Below, in pieces: positions 18,450 through 26,777 of a stretch of 64,000 bases of DNA. Position numbers and translations under genes: made by a program. Within the stretch, counting starts at the first letter, position 1, and each line of letters begins with the position of its first letter. Source of the stretch: Dehalococcoidia bacterium (lineage in GTDB: Bacteria; Chloroflexota; Dehalococcoidia; UBA2979); assembly GCA_964291495.2 (NCBI GenBank), contig OZ219871.1, positions 480,001-544,000 on the forward strand. The letters run 5' to 3'. The notes beneath the pieces were generated by a model. The model ran no database searches. It saw only the letters and a list, made by a program, of their open reading frames with translations, and was not told where the DNA came from.

Positions 18450-20879
18450 ATGGCGCAACCCGGCGAGGGCGGCGCACTGTCCGGCCTGCGCGTGCTCAAC
18501 CTCGGAAGCTCGCTCTCCGCGGCCTGGTGCGCGCGGACGCTCGCCGAGTACGGCGCGGAGGCCACGATCGTCGAGCCCCCCGGCGGCGCTGCGCTGCGGA
18601 GCCTCGGCCCGCACGGCCCCGAGGGCGAAAGCACCCCCGCCGCCTACGCGCTCGCCAACCAGCGATCGCTCGTCCTCGATCTCACGCTCGCGGCGGACCG
18701 CGCCGCGCTGCGCCGCCTCGCCTCGGACAGCGACGTGGTCATCGAGAGCCGCGCGCCCGGCGCCCTCGAGGAAGCGGGCGCGAGCTTCGAGGAGCTGCGC
18801 GCCGAGCGGCCGGGGCTGATCCTCGCGGCGCTGACGCCGCACGGGCTGATCGGGCCGCGCGCAGGGCAGCCGGGCAACGACCTGACAGCCTTCGCGCGCT
18901 CCGGCTGGGCGGCGATCAACGGTCGCGCCGAGCCGCCGCTCAAGGGCGCACGCCACGTCGCCTCGCTCTACGCCGGACTGACGGGCGCGGCGGCGGTGCT
19001 GGCGGCGCTGCGCGAGCGCGCGGCGAGCGGGCGCGGGCAGCTCGTCGACCTCGCGGAGACGGACGCCCTCGCCGCGACGTTCGCCTCGGTGGCCTCGCAC
19101 GCGCAGTACCAGGGCGAGCTGGAGCAGCGCAACGTCGTCTGGTTCCGCGACCCGCTGCGCGGGCCGCTGCCCGCCGCCGACGGCTACTTCCACCTCATGC
19201 TCGGCCGCAGCGACTTCTTCCGGCTGGCGCTGCACATCCTCGGGCTGCCGGAGCTGGCCGAGGACACGCGCTTCGAGGGCCGCAGCGCGAGGCTCAAGCT
19301 GGCGGACGAGTGGGTCCCCGCCGTGTGGGAGCGCGTCGCCGCGCGCAAGAAGCTCGAGCTGTTCGAGGCGCTGACGACGGCGCGCGTCGTCGCCGGGCCG
19401 GTGCTGGACGCGGCGGAGCTCGCCACGAACGAGCACCTCGAGGCGCGCGGCTTCTTCGTGCGCCCGGAGGGCGGCGGACCAAGAATGCCGGGCCCGGCCG
19501 CGCGGCTCTCGGCGACGCCTCCCCGTCTGCGCCGTGCGGCTCCGGCGCCCGGCGCAGACGGCGCCTCGGTGCTCGGAGAGGAGCGCGAGCGCCGGGCGGC
19601 CACACCGCCGCCCACCGGCGGCGCGCGATCGAGGCCGCTCGAGGGCGTGCGGGCGCTGGCGCTCACGCAGGTCTGGGCGGGCGCGCACTGCGCGCAGCAC
19701 CTCGCGCTACTCGGGGCGGAGGTGATCAAGGTCGAGGCGCGCCGCCGTCCCGACACCTGGCGCGGCGGCTACGAGATGCGGATCCTCAGCGCGCTGCGGG
19801 ACCGCCCGACGGCGCGGCGCGGCTGGAACTGCCACCCCTCCTTCAACTCCGGCAACCTCAACCAGCTCGGCCTCACGCTCGACCTGCAACGGCCCGAGGG
19901 CGTCCGGCTCCTGCGCCGCCTGCTGCGCTCGACCGACGTCGTCGTCGAGAACTTCACGCCGCGCGTCCTCGGCAGCCTCGGGGTCGGCTACGAGGCGATG
20001 CGCGAGGAGCGGCCGGACGTGATCCTCTGCTCGATCAGCGGCTTCGGCGCGAGCGGGCCGTACCGCGACCGCCCCTCGAACGGCGGGACGATCGAGCCCG
20101 CGTCCGGCATGTCCTCGCTGCTCGGCTTCCCCGGCGGACCGCCGCGCAACTCCGGCGCGACCTTCCCCGACCCGCTCGCGGCGATGACCGCGACAACCGC
20201 GATCCTCGCCGCGCTCGAACACCGCGCCCGCACGGGCGAGGGCCAGCACATCGACGTCTCGATGCAAGAGGCGACGCTCGCGCTGGTCGGCGACGCGGCG
20301 CTGGAGCACGAGCTGACCGGGCGCACGCCGGGGCCGCAGGGCAACCGCCACCCGGACATTGCGCCGCACGGCATCTACCCCGCGAGCGGCGAGGACCGCT
20401 GGATCGCCCTCGCCGCCGACGACGAGGCGCAGTGGCGGCGGCTCGGCGCGGTCGCCGCGCGCCCCGATTGGGCGGCCGACCCGCGCTACGCGACGAACGG
20501 CGCCCGCAAGGCCAACGAGGACGCCCTCGACGCCGAGATCGCCGGGTGGACCCGCACGCAGCCACGCGACGCGCTGGCCGATCGTCTCGCGGCGGCCGGG
20601 CTACCCGCCGCGCCGGTGCTGAACCCCGGCGAGCTGCCCTCGGACGCCTCGTTCCGCGAGCGCGGCGTCGTCGCCGAGGTCGAGCACCCGGAGGCCGGCG
20701 TGTGGCCCTACGTCGTCGTCCCCTACCGCCTCACCGAGACCCCGTTGCGCGTGACCGCGCCCGCCCCCTGCCTCGGCGAGCACTCCGCCGAGGTGCTCAC
20801 CCGCCTCGCCGGCGTCGACGCCGCCGGCTACGAGGAGCTCGTGCGCCTCGGAATCAGCGGCGAGGATCCGCCGGAGTAG
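18450..20879 (+). CDS. Double-domain class III CoA-transferase (CaiB-CaiB fusion)
   Basis: Two CaiB repeats (LSGLRVLNL... and LEGVRALALTQVWAG...); catalytic Asp only in the second (ATFPDP). Confidence 0.9.
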   Translation: MAQPGEGGALSGLRVLNLGSSLSAAWCARTLAEYGAEATIVEPPGGAALRSLGPHGPEGESTPAAYALANQRSLVLDLTLAADRAALRRLASDSDVVIESRAPGALEEAGASFEELRAERPGLILAALTPHGLIGPRAGQPGNDLTAFARSGWAAINGRAEPPLKGARHVASLYAGLTGAAAVLAALRERAASGRGQLVDLAETDALAATFASVASHAQYQGELEQRNVVWFRDPLRGPLPAADGYFHLMLGRSDFFRLALHILGLPELAEDTRFEGRSARLKLADEWVPAVWERVAARKKLELFEALTTARVVAGPVLDAAELATNEHLEARGFFVRPEGGGPRMPGPAARLSATPPRLRRAAPAPGADGASVLGEERERRAATPPPTGGARSRPLEGVRALALTQVWAGAHCAQHLALLGAEVIKVEARRRPDTWRGGYEMRILSALRDRPTARRGWNCHPSFNSGNLNQLGLTLDLQRPEGVRLLRRLLRSTDVVVENFTPRVLGSLGVGYEAMREERPDVILCSISGFGASGPYRDRPSNGGTIEPASGMSSLLGFPGGPPRNSGATFPDPLAAMTATTAILAALEHRARTGEGQHIDVSMQEATLALVGDAALEHELTGRTPGPQGNRHPDIAPHGIYPASGEDRWIALAADDEAQWRRLGAVAARPDWAADPRYATNGARKANEDALDAEIAGWTRTQPRDALADRLAAAGLPAAPVLNPGELPSDASFRERGVVAEVEHPEAGVWPYVVVPYRLTETPLRVTAPAPCLGEHSAEVLTRLAGVDAAGYEELVRLGISGEDPPE

Positions 20880-20885
20880 CGACCG

Positions 20886-22196
20886 CTACCGGCTCGCGGC
20901 CTGCGGGGGGCGCGCGTAGGCGGAGGACTGGAAGGCGCGGATCGCGTCCACGTGCACCACGCGGACCGCGGGTGGGGCCTCGACCGTGCCGGTGTAGTCC
21001 ACGATCGTGCGCACGCCGGCGGCGGCGAGGCGGTCCGCGACGCCCTGCGCGTAGCGCGGCGGCACGGCGACGATCGCCGCCGCGATGCCCGAGGCGGCGA
21101 GGGCGTCCTCGAGGCCGTCGACGGACTCGACGGTGAGGCCGCGGATCGCGTGGCCGATCTGGCGCGGGTCGGCGTCGAAGGCGGCGGTGATCTCGTAACC
21201 GGCTTGCGCGAGCTGCTCGCTCGCCAGCGTGGGGCGGCCGAGGCGGCCGCAACCAACGAGCGCGAGCGGGGCCAGCGGCTCGCCCTCGAACGCCGCACGG
21301 AACGCCTCGGTGATGGCCCGCGGGCCGCGTTGTTCCTCGATCAGCCGGCCCTCGCGCACGAGGTAGTGGAGGTGGGCGTTGGTCTCCCAGATCGCCATGT
21401 TGCGCGTGTCGGCGTTCATCTCCTGCCACGTGCCCACGTTCCAGCTGATGCGCGCCGCGATGCCCGCGGCGCTGCGCGGGCCGTCCGCGGCGGCCGCGAG
21501 GATCTCCTCGTTGCGCTCGTGGTGGTGCTCGATGATCTCGTCCACCCGCGCCCGCAGATCCTCGAACGAGTACTCGTGGGCGGGGTGGACCATCGCCACG
21601 TTGAGGTCGGCGAGCGCGCGATGGCCATCGATGAAGTCCTGCAACGGGTTGCCCGTGTCGGTCGGGTAGCGGCTGACGTTCGGGGTGGTGACGGGCAGCA
21701 CGTGGTCGCCGGAGAAGAGCAGGCGGCGCCTGCGGTCATGGACGCAGGTGTGGCCGGGCGTGTGTCCGGGCGTCCAGATCGTCCACAGGCCGGAGCCGGG
21801 CACGAGCTCCTCGCCGCCCTCGAGGAGCACGTCCACCTCGGGAGGCCCGGCGTCGGCGTCGAAGGTCAGCACGTAGGGGTTGGTGGCGTCGGCGCGGTGG
21901 ATGGCGATCGGTGCGCCGGTGAACTCGCGCGCCTTCGCGGCGAGGCCGAAGTGATCGTTGTGGCCGTGCGTGACGACGATCAGCGAGAAGTCGCGCGGGG
22001 CGAGGCCCGCCTCCGGGATCTGGCGGCGCAGCGCCTCGAGGCCCTGATCGCTCTCCATCCCGGCGTCGACCATGACCCAGCCCTCGGAGGTCTCGATGGC
22101 GTAGACGAGCGTGTAGCGCTCGCGGCTGCTGGGCCGGATCTGGTTCGGCGGCATGGGGATGCGGAACTGGTAGACGCCCTCGGCCGCTGCCTGCAC
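20886..22196 (-). CDS. MBL-fold metallo-hydrolase fused to a winged helix and a Rex-like NAD(H)-binding Rossmann domain
   Basis: THGHNDH, TPGHTPGH, FSGDHVL, HPAH; ETNAHLHYL wHTH; LVGCGRLG...AAFDADP..IG...AIVAVP...AQGVADRL...GVRTIVDY like the Rex C-terminus. Confidence 0.8.
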   Translation of the reverse strand: MQAAAEGVYQFRIPMPPNQIRPSSRERYTLVYAIETSEGWVMVDAGMESDQGLEALRRQIPEAGLAPRDFSLIVVTHGHNDHFGLAAKAREFTGAPIAIHRADATNPYVLTFDADAGPPEVDVLLEGGEELVPGSGLWTIWTPGHTPGHTCVHDRRRRLLFSGDHVLPVTTPNVSRYPTDTGNPLQDFIDGHRALADLNVAMVHPAHEYSFEDLRARVDEIIEHHHERNEEILAAAADGPRSAAGIAARISWNVGTWQEMNADTRNMAIWETNAHLHYLVREGRLIEEQRGPRAITEAFRAAFEGEPLAPLALVGCGRLGRPTLASEQLAQAGYEITAAFDADPRQIGHAIRGLTVESVDGLEDALAASGIAAAIVAVPPRYAQGVADRLAAAGVRTIVDYTGTVEAPPAVRVVHVDAIRAFQSSAYARPPQAASR

Positions 22197-22302
22197 GCGC
22201 TGCCTCCCACCCGGCTCGGTCCGTGCCTGGCAAGCCTAGCCGTCACGCGCAGTCGAAGGCCACGGCTGGTGCGAGAACGAATCCGGTCGCGTATTCCAAA
22301 CC

Positions 22303-22519
22303 GAGACCTTCGCGTAACCCTCACCTCGGGGCAGCGAGCGCATCCCCTCCGGTCCCCTCTCCCCGAGGGAGAGGGTGAGGGTGAGGGAGGAGCCGCCCTC
22401 TGGAGTTTCGTTGCGCCGTCGGGGCTTCGAAGGGGCGCGGGAGTCCTCCCCCTCACCCCCGCCCTCTCCCCGAGGGAGAGGGGGCCGGATCGGGCTTGTG
22501 GGAGTTTCGCAAGGGTCTC
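22303..22519. mobile_element. MITE, copy 2 (217 bp), with imperfect 18-bp TIRs and AAACC target-site duplication
   Basis: Left end GAGACCTTCGCGTAACCC, right end (rc) GAGACCCTTGCGAAACTC (14/18 match); AAACC at 22298-22302 and 22520-22524; two inverted BoxC-like hairpins inside. Confidence 0.85.
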
Positions 22520-22550: not shown

Positions 22551-22566
22551 TGTGATTCAGGTCACA
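22551..22566. promoter_or_regulatory. TGTGA-N6-TCACA operator (Rex- or CRP/FNR-type)
   Basis: TGTGATTCAGGTCACA upstream of the coxG extended -10 (TGCTATCAT, 22609-22617). Confidence 0.7.
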
Positions 22567-22640
22567 AGGCATGGCCCCGACGCGTCGCGGCAAGGGGCGT
22601 CGCATCGGTGCTATCATCCGCCCGCGCGAGGGGGTGAGGC

Positions 22641-23102
22641 GTGCGCATCGACGGCGAGCACCGTTTCGCGCTTCCCCGATCCGTGATGTGGGAGCACCTG
22701 CTCGACCCCGCCTCGCTGCAAGGCGCGATCCCCGGCTGCACCGCGTTCGACGAGGTCGCCCCCGATACCTGGGAACTCACCGCCCAGGTCGGCGTCGGGC
22801 CGGTGCGCGGAACCTTCACGGGCCGCGTCGAACTGCGCGACCGGCAGCCCGAGTCGCGCTACACGCTGATCGCCTCGGGACAGGGGCGGCCCGGTGGCGG
22901 CCAGGGCGAGGCCGTGATCGACCTGACGGACGACGGAGAAGGCACGCACCTGCGCTACGAGGCGGACGTGACGGTCCGGGGCGCGATCGCTCGCGTCGGC
23001 GGCCGCTTGCTGACGGCCTCGGCGCGCACGATGGCGCGCCAGTTCTTCGATGCGATCGAGCAAGAGGCAAAGACGGCGACAGAGAGGAGTGCGGCGACAT
23101 GA
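22641..23102 (+). CDS. coxG: CoxG/SRPBCC carbon monoxide dehydrogenase accessory protein
   Basis: [39 protein letters not shown]. Confidence 0.88.
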
Positions 23103-23566
23103 GCGTACCGATTTCGGTAACCGTGAACGGACGGGCCCACGAACTGGAAGTGGAGCCCCGCATGCTGCTGGTGCACCTCCTGCGGGAGGAGCTGAACCTC
23201 ACCGGCACGCATGTGGGCTGCGACACGAGCCAGTGCGGGGCCTGCACCGTGATCGTCGATGGCTCGTCCGCCAAGTCCTGCACCGTGCTGGCGGTGCAGG
23301 CCGACGGCGCGTCCATCACCACGATCGAGGGCCTCGCCCAGGACGGCGAACTGCACCCGCTGCAGGAGGCGTTCTGGGACGAGCACGGCCTGCAGTGCGG
23401 CTATTGCACGCCGGGCATGATTATGTCCGGTATTGACCTCCTCGAGCGGCACCCCGACCCGTCCGAGGCCGAGATCCGGCGCGGGTTGGACGGCAACCTC
23501 TGCCGCTGCACCGGCTACGAGCACATCGTGAACGCCATGCAGGCCGCGGCGGGAGGTGCATCATGA
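23099..23566 (+). CDS. coxS: Molybdenum hydroxylase/CODH small 2Fe-2S subunit
   Basis: [30 protein letters not shown]. Confidence 0.93.
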
Positions 23567-25935
23567 CCATGGCCGCAACCCCAGGCCAGCTTGTCGGACA
23601 GCGCGTCCGGCGGCGCGAGGACCCGCGCCTGGTGCAGGGCCACGGCACCTACGTCGACGACGTGAAGCTGCCGGGCATGCTCCACCTCGCCTTCCGGCGC
23701 AGCGACGTGGCGCACGGCATCATCCGCTCGATCGACACCAGCGCCGCCGAGGCGATGGATGGCGTCGAGGCGGTCTACACCGGCGCCCAGATCGCCGACA
23801 TAGTGCCGCCGATGCCCGTCGCGACGCCGTTCCCGGCGCCCGACCACCACTCGGTGGCCCCGGAGCGCGTCCGCTACGTCGGCGAGCCCATCGCCGTTGT
23901 CGTGGCCACCGACCGCTACCTGGCGGCCGACGCCGCCGACGCGATCGAGGTCGACATCGAGGAACTGCCCGCGGTGATCGACCCCGAGCGGGCGATGGCC
24001 GGTGAGCCGACCACGATCTACGACGACTTCGAGAACAACCTCGCCGTCCCGATGGCCCCCGCCGGCACCGGCGTGGGCGCCGACGGCAGCATCGAGGACA
24101 ACTCGGCGCTCGACGAGGCGTTCGAGAAGGCCGACGTGGTGATCTCGCAGCGGATGATGAACCAGCGCCTGGTCCCGAACGCGATGGAGCCGCGCGGCAT
24201 CCTCGCGCACTACGAGCCGGGCAAGGAGGAACTGACCGCCTGGTCGACGACGCAGAACCCGCATATCGCGCGCACGCTCCTGGCGGCGATCCTCGGGATG
24301 GGCCAGCACCAGGTGCGCGTCATCGCCCCGGACGTGGGCGGCGGCTTCGGCAGCAAGATCAACGTCTACGGCGAGGACTTCGCCGCGGCCGCGATCTCGC
24401 GCGACCTCGGCCGCCCCGTGAAGTGGATCGAGGACCGCTCCGAGGCGTTCATGACCACGATCCACGGCCGCGACGTGATCGGCTACATCGACCTCGCCGC
24501 GACGGGTGAGGGCAAGGTGACGGCCGTCAAGATGCGGCTCATCGCCGACATCGGCGCCTACGAGATGGTGCTGACGGCGGCGATCCCCACCCTGGTGGCC
24601 TTCATGATCAGCGGCGTCTATGACATCCCCGTCGTGCGCGCCGAGCTGACCGAGGTCTTCACCAACAAGATGCCGACCGACGCCTACCGCGGCGCCGGAC
24701 GGCCCGAGGGCATCTACTTCCTCGAGCGCGCCATGGACATGCTGGCGTCCGAGCTGGGGATGGACCCCGCCGACGTGCGGCGCGTGAACTTCATCCAGCC
24801 GGACCAGTTCCCGTACACCACCGCCGGGGGCATGGTCTACGACTCCGGTGAGTACGAGCGCCTGCTCGACCAGGCCCTCGAGAACGCCGGCTGGGAGCAG
24901 ATGAAGGCCGACCGCGACGCCGCGCGCGCCGAGGGTCGGATCGTCGGGCTCGGCATGTCGTTCTACACGGAGATCTGCGGCTTCGGCCCCTCGGCGGCGA
25001 TGCCGACCGTCGGACTCTGGGAGCACGCGAGCGTAAGCGTGGAGCGCGACGGCAAGGTGATCGCCTCGAGCGGCGCGTCCTCGCACGGCCAGGGCCACGA
25101 GACGACGTTCGCGCAGATGCTGGCGGATGACCTCGGTATCCCGATGGATGACATCTCGATCATCCATGGCGACACCGGGCAAGTCCGCGAGGGCACGGGC
25201 ACCTTCGGCAGCCGCTCGCAGGTGGTGGGCGGCACCGCGCTGCTCATGGCGAGCGGCAAGGTCAAGGACAAGATGCGCAAGTTCGCCGCGCAGATGCTCG
25301 AGACCCAGCCCGCCGACCTCTCGTTCCGCGAAGGGATGATCGGACCGACGGGGCAGGAGGACACCGGCGTCGCCTTCGCCGAGGTCGCCGGCTTCGCCTA
25401 CATCCCGATCCCGCTCCCGCCGGACACCGAGCCCGGCCTGAGCGAGGAGGCGTTCTGGGAGCCCGAGGGCTTCACCTGGCCCTTCGGCTGCTACATCTCG
25501 CAGGTCGAGATCGACCGCGACACGGGCGAGCTGGAGCTGCAGCGCTTCGTCGGCGTGGACGACTGCGGCAACGTGGTCAACCCGCTGATCGTCGCCGGGC
25601 AGATCCACGGCGGCATCGCCCAGGGCGTCGGCCAGGCGATGACCGAGGAGGCGGTCTATGACGAGGAGAGCGGCCAGCTGCTGAGCGCCTCGTTCATGGA
25701 CTACGCGATCCCGCGCGCGCGCGACCTGCCACGCTTCGAGCTGGACCACACCGTGACCCCCTCCCCGCTCAACCCGATGGGCGTGAAGGGCATCGGCGAG
25801 GCCGGCACGATCGGGTCGACTCCATCGATCGTGAACGCCGCCGTCGACGCGCTCAGCGGGCACGGCGTCGAGCACATCGACATGATGCTGCGTCCGGAGA
25901 AGCTCTGGCGTCTGATCCAGGGAGGCGACGCATGA
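23563..25935 (+). CDS. coxL: Molybdopterin-binding large subunit, form II (putative) CO dehydrogenase / xanthine oxidase family
   Basis: [17 protein letters not shown], form II signature [23 protein letters not shown]. Confidence 0.92.
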
Positions 25936-26777
25936 TCCCCTCAGCGTTCGATTACCAGCGCGCCGGCTCCGTCGAGGAGGCGATCGCGCTCAAGCAGGGA
26001 GCAGAGGGCGACGCCCGCTTCATCGCCGGCGGTCACAGCCTGATCCCGCTGATGAAGCTGCGCCTCGCCGAGCCCTCGCTGCTGATCGACATCAGCGGCA
26101 TCCCCGGGCTCTCCGGGGTGAGCGAGGACGGCGGGCGGATCTCGATCGGCGCGCTCACCACCCACGCCGAGTTGGAGGACGACGCGGTGCTGCTCGCCTC
26201 CGCGCCCGTCGTCGCCGAGGCGGCGGGCGAGATCGGCGACCAGCAGGTGCGCAACCGCGGCACCATCGGCGGCAGCCTCGCGCACGCCGACCCGGCGTCC
26301 GACCTGCCGGCGGTGGTCGTCGCGCTCGACGCCTCGATCCACATCGCCGGCTCGGGCGGCGAGCGCACGGTCGCCGCGGGCGACTTCTTCAGCGGGCTGT
26401 TCGAGGTCGACCTGACGGAGGACGAGCTGATCACCTCGGTCAGCTTCGACGCCCCCTCGCAGGCGGCCTATGCGAAGCTCCGCCACCCGGCCTCGCACTT
26501 CGCGATCGTCGGCGTTGCGGCCTCGCTGACCGTCGAGGGCGGCGTCTGCACCGGCGCCCGCGTCGCCGTGACGGGCGCCTCGACGCACGCGCAGCGGCTG
26601 GGGGCGGTCGAGGAGGCGCTGACCGGCTCGTCGCTCGACGACGACGCGATCGCAGCCGCCTCCGCGGCAGCCGCCGTGGACGACGTGAACGCGGACCTGG
26701 CGGGCTCGGAGGAGTACCGGCGGGCGATGACGCAGGTCTTCACCGGCCGCGCGATCGCCGCCGCCGCCGGCCGCTAG
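25932..26777 (+). CDS. coxM: FAD-binding medium subunit of molybdenum hydroxylase/CODH
   Basis: [40 protein letters not shown]. Confidence 0.92.
   Translation: MIPSAFDYQRAGSVEEAIALKQGAEGDARFIAGGHSLIPLMKLRLAEPSLLIDISGIPGLSGVSEDGGRISIGALTTHAELEDDAVLLASAPVVAEAAGEIGDQQVRNRGTIGGSLAHADPASDLPAVVVALDASIHIAGSGGERTVAAGDFFSGLFEVDLTEDELITSVSFDAPSQAAYAKLRHPASHFAIVGVAASLTVEGGVCTGARVAVTGASTHAQRLGAVEEALTGSSLDDDAIAAASAAAAVDDVNADLAGSEEYRRAMTQVFTGRAIAAAAGR

Follow-up and report, generated by a model that had tools for sequence, protein, structure and literature searches.

Rex is known as a DNA-binding repressor, and its sensor domain has been borrowed for the engineered reporters of reduced nicotinamide adenine dinucleotide (NADH) named Peredox, Frex and SoNar. 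Those reporters join the Rex dinucleotide-binding domain to an unrelated output, but they are laboratory constructs that retain the sensing residues. Here we describe a natural gene that joins the Rex domain to an enzyme and has lost the sensor tyrosine. Its product consists of a metallo-β-lactamase (MBL) core, a helical/winged-helix domain and a Rex-derived C-terminal module. The gene lies in a 64,000-nucleotide stretch (the window; positions 480,001 to 544,000, forward strand, of contig OZ219871.1, GenBank assembly GCA_964291495.2) from a sponge-associated Chloroflexota bacterium of the Dehalococcoidia, and coordinates given without a contig are those of the window. The sequence comparisons and the predicted structure lead us to read the product as a dinucleotide-binding, probably dimeric hydrolase with a built-in nucleotide module and not as a repressor, a reading that we hold with about as much confidence as doubt.

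The reference for the C-terminal module is T. maritima Rex (Tma Rex). Rex dimerizes through its Rossmann domain and a swapped last helix. In Tma Rex, residues G89, G91, G94, D115, V153, P154 and I161 contact the adenosine diphosphate (ADP) part of NAD, with Asp115 bonded to the ADP moiety. The NADH signal is transmitted by Tyr100, which stacks on the nicotinamide ring and, in the NADH form, makes a bond to Asp191; F201 of the terminal helix packs on the N-domain (PMC8836258). The reference for the N-terminal part is TTHA1429 (2zo4), which has no assigned function (PMC6267482), together with Burkholderia 5u8o, 5i0p and 6ao1. These proteins share the MBL core and helical domain with the fused protein (profile E-values from 2e-36 to 4e-30), but their chains stop once the helical domain is complete, the insert that follows the HR.DA strand is longer in them, and none has a Rossmann module. 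LACTB2 (4ad9), an RNase in the same MBL branch (PMC4770246), and PqsE (2q0j) are also neighbors of the MBL and helical part and likewise lack a Rossmann domain; at only 15-22% identity their chemistry is not transferable.

The fused gene is one uninterrupted open reading frame (ORF) of 436 codons, as an earlier sequence-only reading had stated; the ORF list and the translation agree, and every motif quoted in that reading is found in the translation. The G+C content of the region is 70-77% and long spurious ORFs occur in all frames, so ORF length alone is no proof of a gene. The G+C fractions at the three codon positions of the fused-gene orthologues (~0.72-0.75/0.49-0.50/0.94-0.95) follow the pattern of real genes, and the ribosome-binding site is kept as GGGAGG or GGGGGG at three orthologous loci. 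The ratio of nonsynonymous to synonymous substitution rates (dN/dS) was calculated by the Nei-Gojobori method from the 45 pairs of 10 genus orthologues. The whole gene gives 0.19, and its parts range from 0.14 (MBL core) through 0.22 (Rex-like part) to 0.26 (helical domain). Purifying selection acts on all three parts of the protein.

Residues 27-207 match Pfam Lactamase_B (PF00753) with E = 1.5e-28 and 100.5 bits against a cut-off of 22.7. The HGHNDH motif is accompanied by GHTPGH (residues 144-149), GDH (163-165) and PAH (205-207), and H77, H79, D81, H82, H145, D164 and H207 are invariant in the 20 fused proteins compared, which upholds the earlier description of an intact metal-binding core. 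The NCBIfam model for Strvi_7410 family MBL hydrolases (NF053820) scores 186.9 bits (E = 6.6e-55) against a curated cut-off of 525 bits; by this score the fused protein is a relative of that family and not a member. An AlphaFold2 model from a 20-sequence alignment has a mean predicted local distance difference test score (pLDDT) of 87.6 and a predicted template modeling score (pTM) of 0.82, which suggests a defined interdomain arrangement. The model superimposes on TTHA1429 (2zo4_A, Z = 29.7 over 271 residues) and on Burkholderia 5u8o_A (Z = 29.6 over 285 residues) with the helical domain included, and the match of the fused-family profile to 2zo4 extends through residue 305. Further structural neighbors of the MBL and helical part are the Bacillus paraoxonase 8zxg (Z = 26.1), human LACTB2 (Z = 25.5) and PqsE (Z = 23.4). 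Because residues 1-290 match the TTHA1429 and Burkholderia MBLs, the winged helix is that MBL branch's own. The winged helix had been called typical of the MBL subfamily from sequence; the assignment stands on the 2zo4 and 5u8o structures, and the TTHA1429-type helical/winged-helix family PF21221 matches below threshold (E = 0.12).

The C-terminal part aligns with Rex. Residues 312-402 match Pfam CoA_binding (PF02629, E = 1.5e-14), a family in which the Rex C-domain stands beside CoA-binding domains of the succinyl-CoA-synthetase type, and positions 84-205 of the NCBIfam Rex models correspond to residues 309-429 (E = 1.1e-26). The fused-family profile matches eight distinct solved Rex sequences over profile positions ~293-429 with E-values from 3e-25 to 2e-18. 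Rex chains superimpose on model residues 307-423 only (5zz5_A, Z = 18.7, root mean square deviation 2.1 Å over 114 residues; 3keo_A, Z = 16.5). About 140 residues (~291-430) are homologous to the linker helix, Rossmann domain and last helix of Rex from T. maritima (5zz5), B. subtilis (2vt2) and T. aquaticus (1xcb), in line with the ~130 Rex-like residues first proposed. The proposed junction near 21290 falls at residue ~303, the edge of the linker helix (residues 291-302) that precedes the first Rossmann strand. The protein shares with Rex the GxGxxG loop (GCGRLG, residues 315-320), the ADP-binding Asp (within AAFDADPRQIG, 338-348), the Val-Pro strand (within IVAVPPRYAQGVADRLAAAGV, 375-395) and the Asp that starts the last helix. 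Unlike Rex, it has no N-terminal DNA-binding domain and a whole MBL enzyme stands ahead of the module. The terminal-helix region has a pLDDT of 56-79 in the monomer model, and a sequence homologue of the Rex swap helix is present. A homodimer prediction for residues 286-436 gave a score of 0.00 without control runs, a value that counts neither way on dimerization.

The nucleotide pocket was mapped from the Tma Rex contacts onto the 20 fused proteins by HMMER alignment (PMC8836258; Table 1). The residues equivalent to the ADP contacts are invariant or nearly so. The position of the sensor tyrosine holds Ser, Ile, Val, Asn or Gln in all 20 proteins, and the genus sequences have zero aromatic residues between positions 321 and 333. 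Gln423 of the terminal helix is invariant. With the ADP-contact residues kept and the sensor tyrosine gone, the ADP half of the pocket is conserved and the nicotinamide-reading half is not.

Table 1. Features of the fused gene, and residues of its product placed by alignment with T. maritima Rex (Tma); fractions refer to the 20 fused proteins.
Feature	Coordinates	Strand	Basis
Whole fused gene, 436 codons; stop 20886-20888, GTG start 22196-22194	20886..22196	-	ORF list, translation, orthologues
Ribosome-binding site GGGAGG	22203..22208	-	about 6-7 nt before GTG
MBL core, residues 1-213	21558..22196	-	Lactamase_B match; five metal-site motifs; dN/dS
HGHNDH metal-binding motif, residues 77-82	21951..21968	-	translation and family alignment
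Insert-loss site between residues 111 and 112	21861..21866	-	alignment; two-stretch matches with an offset of ~41 residues
MBL-type helical/winged-helix domain, residues 214-290	21327..21557	-	model secondary structure, structural matches, dN/dS
Rex-derived module, residues 291-436 (linker helix, Rossmann fold, C-terminal helix)	20889..21326	-	NCBIfam and PDB matches, dN/dS
GCGRLG dinucleotide-binding loop, G315/G317/G320	21237..21254	-	invariant in 20/20; Tma G89/G91/G94
Pro322			Tma Ala96; Pro in 6 of 7 close relatives (>80% identity), Ser in one; Ala/Ser in the 13 others
Ser326, at the Rex sensor-tyrosine position	21219..21221	-	alignment; Tma Tyr100; aromatic in 0/20
Asp341, end of strand 2	21174..21176	-	Asp in 20/20; Tma Asp115
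Gln346			Tma Lys120; Gln in 19/20
Val378-Pro379			Tma Val153-Pro154; Pro379 in 20/20, Val378 in at least 90%
Val386			Tma Ile161; at least 90%
Residues 415-430 (HVDAIRAFQSSAY...), homologous to the last, domain-swapping Rex helix	20907..20954	-	alignment to B. subtilis Rex 2vt2
Asp417			Tma Asp191; Asp in 17, Glu in 2, Asn in 1
Tyr427			Tma Phe201; Tyr in 16/20

The nearest relatives of the N-terminal 290 residues are unfused Chloroflexota MBLs of about 337-340 residues (such as P0023 and P0027, at 49% identity in the protein search and 53% in the alignment). They have the same metal motifs and helical domain as the fusion, but the HR.DA strand is followed in them by an insert of ~33-45 residues with a W...G[VM]P.EE motif, and they end a few residues past the wing. 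The insert is missing from all four aligned fused representatives, and these run into the Rex module exactly at the end point of the unfused sisters. The closest free-standing relatives of the fused Rex domain are ordinary Rex proteins, and the fused domains form a clade of their own with at most 45% identity to any free Rex found. A tree built from 108 Rossmann modules places the 22 fused ones on one side of a branch with a support of 99 in the Shimodaira-Hasegawa-like approximate likelihood ratio test (SH-aLRT), opposite 86 canonical Rex modules; 11 of 97 Rex-bearing loci were dropped (4 partial, 7 with a stop in the match). Canonical Rex proteins from the genus itself cluster with those of other Dehalococcoidia. 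That the fused C-domains form one clade indicates that the fusion arose once, and the simplest history suggested by the alignments would be a single ancient fusion event together with loss of the insert. The genome also encodes a canonical 222-residue Rex on contig C6, with PF06971 (8.3e-20), CoA_binding and the sensor tyrosine; the fusion is thus no Rex replacement.

The fused gene was found in 11 of 19 genus genomes, one copy lying at a contig end and one carrying an internal stop; ten orthologues are intact. When 5.8 billion proteins were searched by a word index, 19 further full-length fused clusters at 93-48% identity were returned, drawn from JGI, ENA, Logan and NCBI, and an exhaustive HMMER search of 1.84 billion representatives added a more distant member at 43% identity (P0138). 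Among 80 metagenome loci, only L098 and L099 carry the fusion (~59% identity); the remaining candidates were rejected, L101 being an ordinary 212-residue Rex. Two apparent free-standing helical plus Rex-like proteins (P0169 and P0194) proved to be edge fragments on contigs of 1.1 and 1.8 kb that start mid-domain. Outside the genus, the fusion was not found in 22 relatives. A 401-genome sample of the class gave four fusion matches, all from genus members, and the sole match in a 401-genome sample of the phylum was the window's own genome. No other N-terminal partner of the Rex-like domain appeared among proteins of 239-763 residues in a word-based search. The ESM Atlas, searched for clusters of at least 50 members, returned only MBL clusters (score 0.85), none with the fused architecture. 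The family is rare, having turned up only in the window's genus among the class and phylum genomes sampled and in a few metagenome lineages, and it probably matters little ecologically.

Contigs from two studies cover the entire gene and cross the MBL/Rex junction, which excludes a chimeric assembly. The first shows 0 differences but may come from the source sample; the second, of 3486 bases, spans 20703-22272 with 99 differences and 3 gaps. The sequence-only reading would have fallen with a chimera, a single-genome accident or a C-domain unlike Rex, and the orthologues, the contigs, the dN/dS values and the Rex E-values speak against each.

The protein would then be a cytoplasmic accessory enzyme, a two-metal hydrolase of the TTHA1429/LACTB2-like MBL branch that kept its own helical/winged-helix domain and, in one ancient event, acquired at its C-terminus a Rex sensor half made up of the linker helix, the Rossmann fold and the terminal helix. 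The Rossmann module would bind an adenine dinucleotide, with NAD(H) or a close analogue the most likely candidate, and would pair two chains as in Rex. Ligand occupancy may be relayed to the hydrolase via the terminal helix. The Rex module could modulate access to an active site that lacks the insert, perhaps by occupying the space of the lost insert. The protein would not act as a DNA-binding repressor. With the sensor tyrosine gone, it may report NAD(H) abundance and not the NADH/NAD+ ratio; judged from the pocket residues, the protein may tell NADH and NAD+ apart only weakly or by other means. Candidate substrate bonds for the predicted hydrolase are thioester, ester/lactone or phosphodiester, for which a thioesterase, an esterase/lactonase and an RNase in neighboring MBL branches are precedents. 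The nuclease first suggested is one of several possible chemistries only. The redox-gated hydrolase of the same proposal is possible, but it is weakened by the replacement of the sensor tyrosine throughout the family. NAD(H) binding is plausible. A more elaborate form of the idea, a natural one-protein switch, is a speculation we consider doubtful: NAD(H) at the dimer interface would move the terminal helix, the Rossmann module would replace the lid insert and gate the MBL site, and in these catabolic genomes, rich in coenzyme A (CoA) transferases, the output could be a thioesterase that frees CoA when reduced cofactor accumulates.

Several observations weigh against a dinucleotide-binding hydrolase with a nucleotide module. 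Every fused protein is missing the sensor tyrosine, and the genus has Pro where Tma Rex has Ala96; the nicotinamide half of the pocket thus differs from that of every characterized Rex. The gene is dispensable, as 8 of the 19 genus genomes lack it without a remnant. The neighborhood of the gene is variable and contains no specific partner. Broken fused copies occur with the break at three different places. The copy in genome G005 (L010/L019) is interrupted at residue 306 by an in-frame TAA; the stop sits in a locally shifted stretch of ~20 residues, exactly where the MBL and Rex parts join, and NCBI annotates the downstream piece as a separate 130-residue hypothetical protein (P0283). Either a sequencing error or a genuine split could explain this stop. 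In P0016 the frame shifts after residue 245, and P0020 and P0284 are one copy split on one contig. Because the context varies and the gene is absent without a remnant, the fused gene is an accessory gene in a variable catabolic island.

One alternative, which we consider unlikely, is that the Rossmann module binds CoA or acyl-CoA and that the enzyme hydrolyzes acyl-CoA or other thioesters beside CoA-transferases. PqsE, a structural neighbor, is reportedly an MBL-fold thioesterase. An MBL-fold acyl-CoA thioesterase, MBLAC2, exists (PMC7949124). The matched Pfam family is CoA_binding, and a switch to another ligand would fit with the disappearance of the tyrosine that stacks on nicotinamide. In several arrangements, a gene for a family III CoA-transferase adjoins the fused gene or lies near it. 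In the window a double family III CoA-transferase gene (18450-20879) is convergent with the fused gene, as it is in genomes G009, G001 and G005. Other CoA-transferase paralogues lie nearby in G011, G012 and G014, and at L099 the genes just upstream of the fused gene, on its strand, encode an enoyl-CoA hydratase and three CoA-transferases. However, no CoA-transferase directly adjoins the gene in the available sequence of L098, G010 and G004, and the only gene near it at L098 encodes a solute-binding protein. The 3.08-Mb genome (G000) contains 132 CoA_transf_3 (PF02515) matches, many as tandem double-domain genes, and 21 SBP_bac_5 (family-5 solute-binding protein) matches, so neighbors of these kinds are weak functional evidence, and adjacency to a CoA-transferase was set aside as a functional link. 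The domain itself scores as Rex, including the Rex-specific terminal helix, and the best named models and solved structures are all Rex. Asp341 is invariant at the end of strand 2, where a Rossmann-fold Asp usually pairs with free ribose hydroxyls and CoA has its 3'-phosphate.

Comparably improbable is a Rex module that serves as a dimerization scaffold only, with or without a permanently bound nucleotide, and carries no signal. Rex dimerizes through this same domain and its swapped helix (PMC8836258), the sensing tyrosine is lost in 20/20, and the insert of the unfused sisters that the fused family lacks could have been structural. A pure scaffold would not need the ADP contacts to stay invariant or nearly so at only 48% identity, and the Rex-like part is under selection like that on the rest of the protein.

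The sequence-only reading had offered a Rex-like regulator as its second option, and this we find less likely still. The MBL winged helix would bind DNA, the Rossmann domain would sense NAD(H) and the MBL would be an extra input or enzymatic domain. The order of winged helix, linker helix, Rossmann fold and terminal helix mirrors Rex, and the residue equivalent to F201, which packs on the N-domain in Rex, is usually Tyr. In the window the fused gene is divergent from a cluster of coxG, small-subunit, coxL-like and coxM genes (22641-26777), and coxG lies directly upstream of it in 7 genus genomes. The intergenic region of the window contains a perfect TGTGA-N6-TCACA palindrome (TGTGATTCAGGTCACA, 22551-22566), 75 bases upstream of coxG; the Rex operator consensus is TTGTGAA-N4-TTCACAA (PMC2883068). 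Against these points, the Rex DNA-binding domain PF06971 has no match at E ≤ 1 in the fused protein, and the Rex chains align beyond the helical domain only. The helical domain has a net charge of -4 in the window protein and of -12 to +1 across the family, and the same domain is found in unfused MBLs. The palindrome is absent within 1 kb upstream of the gene at all 14 other fused loci, adjoins a window-specific repeat insertion and is expected by chance, since one or more matches at ≤1 mismatch turned up in 39 of 100 shuffles; it was rejected as a Rex operator, and the fusion has no conserved operator. The charge and the unconserved palindrome beside a repeat make a repressor function unlikely. 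Association with the cox-like operon fares no better: the large subunit is present in 17 of 19 genus genomes against 11 of 19 for the fusion, and the operon is present in 6 of the 8 genomes without the fusion. Finally, the catalytic metal site is invariant.

It is very improbable that the fused gene reflects faulty assembly or annotation or is a pseudogene in decay: the three related broken copies would fit it, but they break at different places, and ten intact genus orthologues, independent junction contigs, purifying selection on each part and conservation down to 43% identity contradict it.

The surroundings of the gene yielded further observations. In 3 genomes an ATP-binding cassette (ABC) transporter cassette with SBP_bac_5 lies between coxG and the fused gene, co-directional with the latter, and other CoA-transferase paralogues lie downstream. 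In G010 (L181:9330-12860), a 1176-residue gene with RNase_H_2 and superfamily-1 helicase (AAA_11/AAA_12) domains begins 19 bases after the fused gene near the contig end; it may be a mobile or defense-type gene at the edge of the variable segment. The small subunit of the cox-like cluster lies at about 23099-23566, and the coxL-like large subunit carries AYRGAGR, the form II CoxL-like signature and not that of CO-oxidizing form I. In four fusion-less genomes, similarity to the window stops just upstream of coxG. In fusion-less genomes the matched start of the large subunit (its first 35-56 residues) shows 96-100% identity and the protein as a whole 94-96%, against only 66-72% for coxG, which suggests a recombination breakpoint inside the cox-like operon. 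The ~60 bases upstream of coxG (22580-22640; GATGATAGCACCGATGCGA...GCGACGCGTCGGGGCC) are almost invariant in four genomes while the rest of the spacer diverges; judged by this conservation, the stretch may serve the cox-like operon as a leader or a regulatory element. Where the window has the palindrome, orthologous loci read CGTGACCTGTG-CGCAC or similar.

The repeat beside the palindrome is a dispersed element of ~215 bases inserted in the intergenic region at 22303-22519, with internal hairpin-like arms (GGGGAGAGGG/CCCTCTCCCC). It has 64 matches in the genome, of which about 40 are nearly complete and show 85-95% identity, and one copy (C6:632669-632919) lies near the canonical rex gene. The repeat is missing from the orthologous loci, and Logan contig depth over it reaches thousands. 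Scans of the region found no sigma-70-like promoter, one terminator-like site inside the fused gene on the opposite strand, and nothing near a gathering score in Rfam. Short contigs from one RNA-library run (X2) cover 20800-20982 and four stretches between 21426 and 22298, with none across about 20983-21425; as DNA can occur in RNA libraries, these contigs show neither transcription nor its absence.

The sequence-only reading knew of no described protein with this architecture, and a full-text literature search found no description of an MBL-Rex fusion and no paper on the Strvi_7410 name. An automatic JGI annotation names both halves of one fused protein (P0021). Each domain is familiar on its own, but in the literature searched their combination is new, as is the loss of the sensor residue. 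A natural, selected fusion of Rex to an enzyme, if true, would show that evolution rewired the Rex sensor to a non-transcriptional output. It would offer a small, testable model of nucleotide control over an MBL-fold hydrolase, and the loss of the tyrosine from a pocket that keeps its ADP half would be an experiment of nature that separates the parts of that pocket needed for binding from those needed for redox discrimination.

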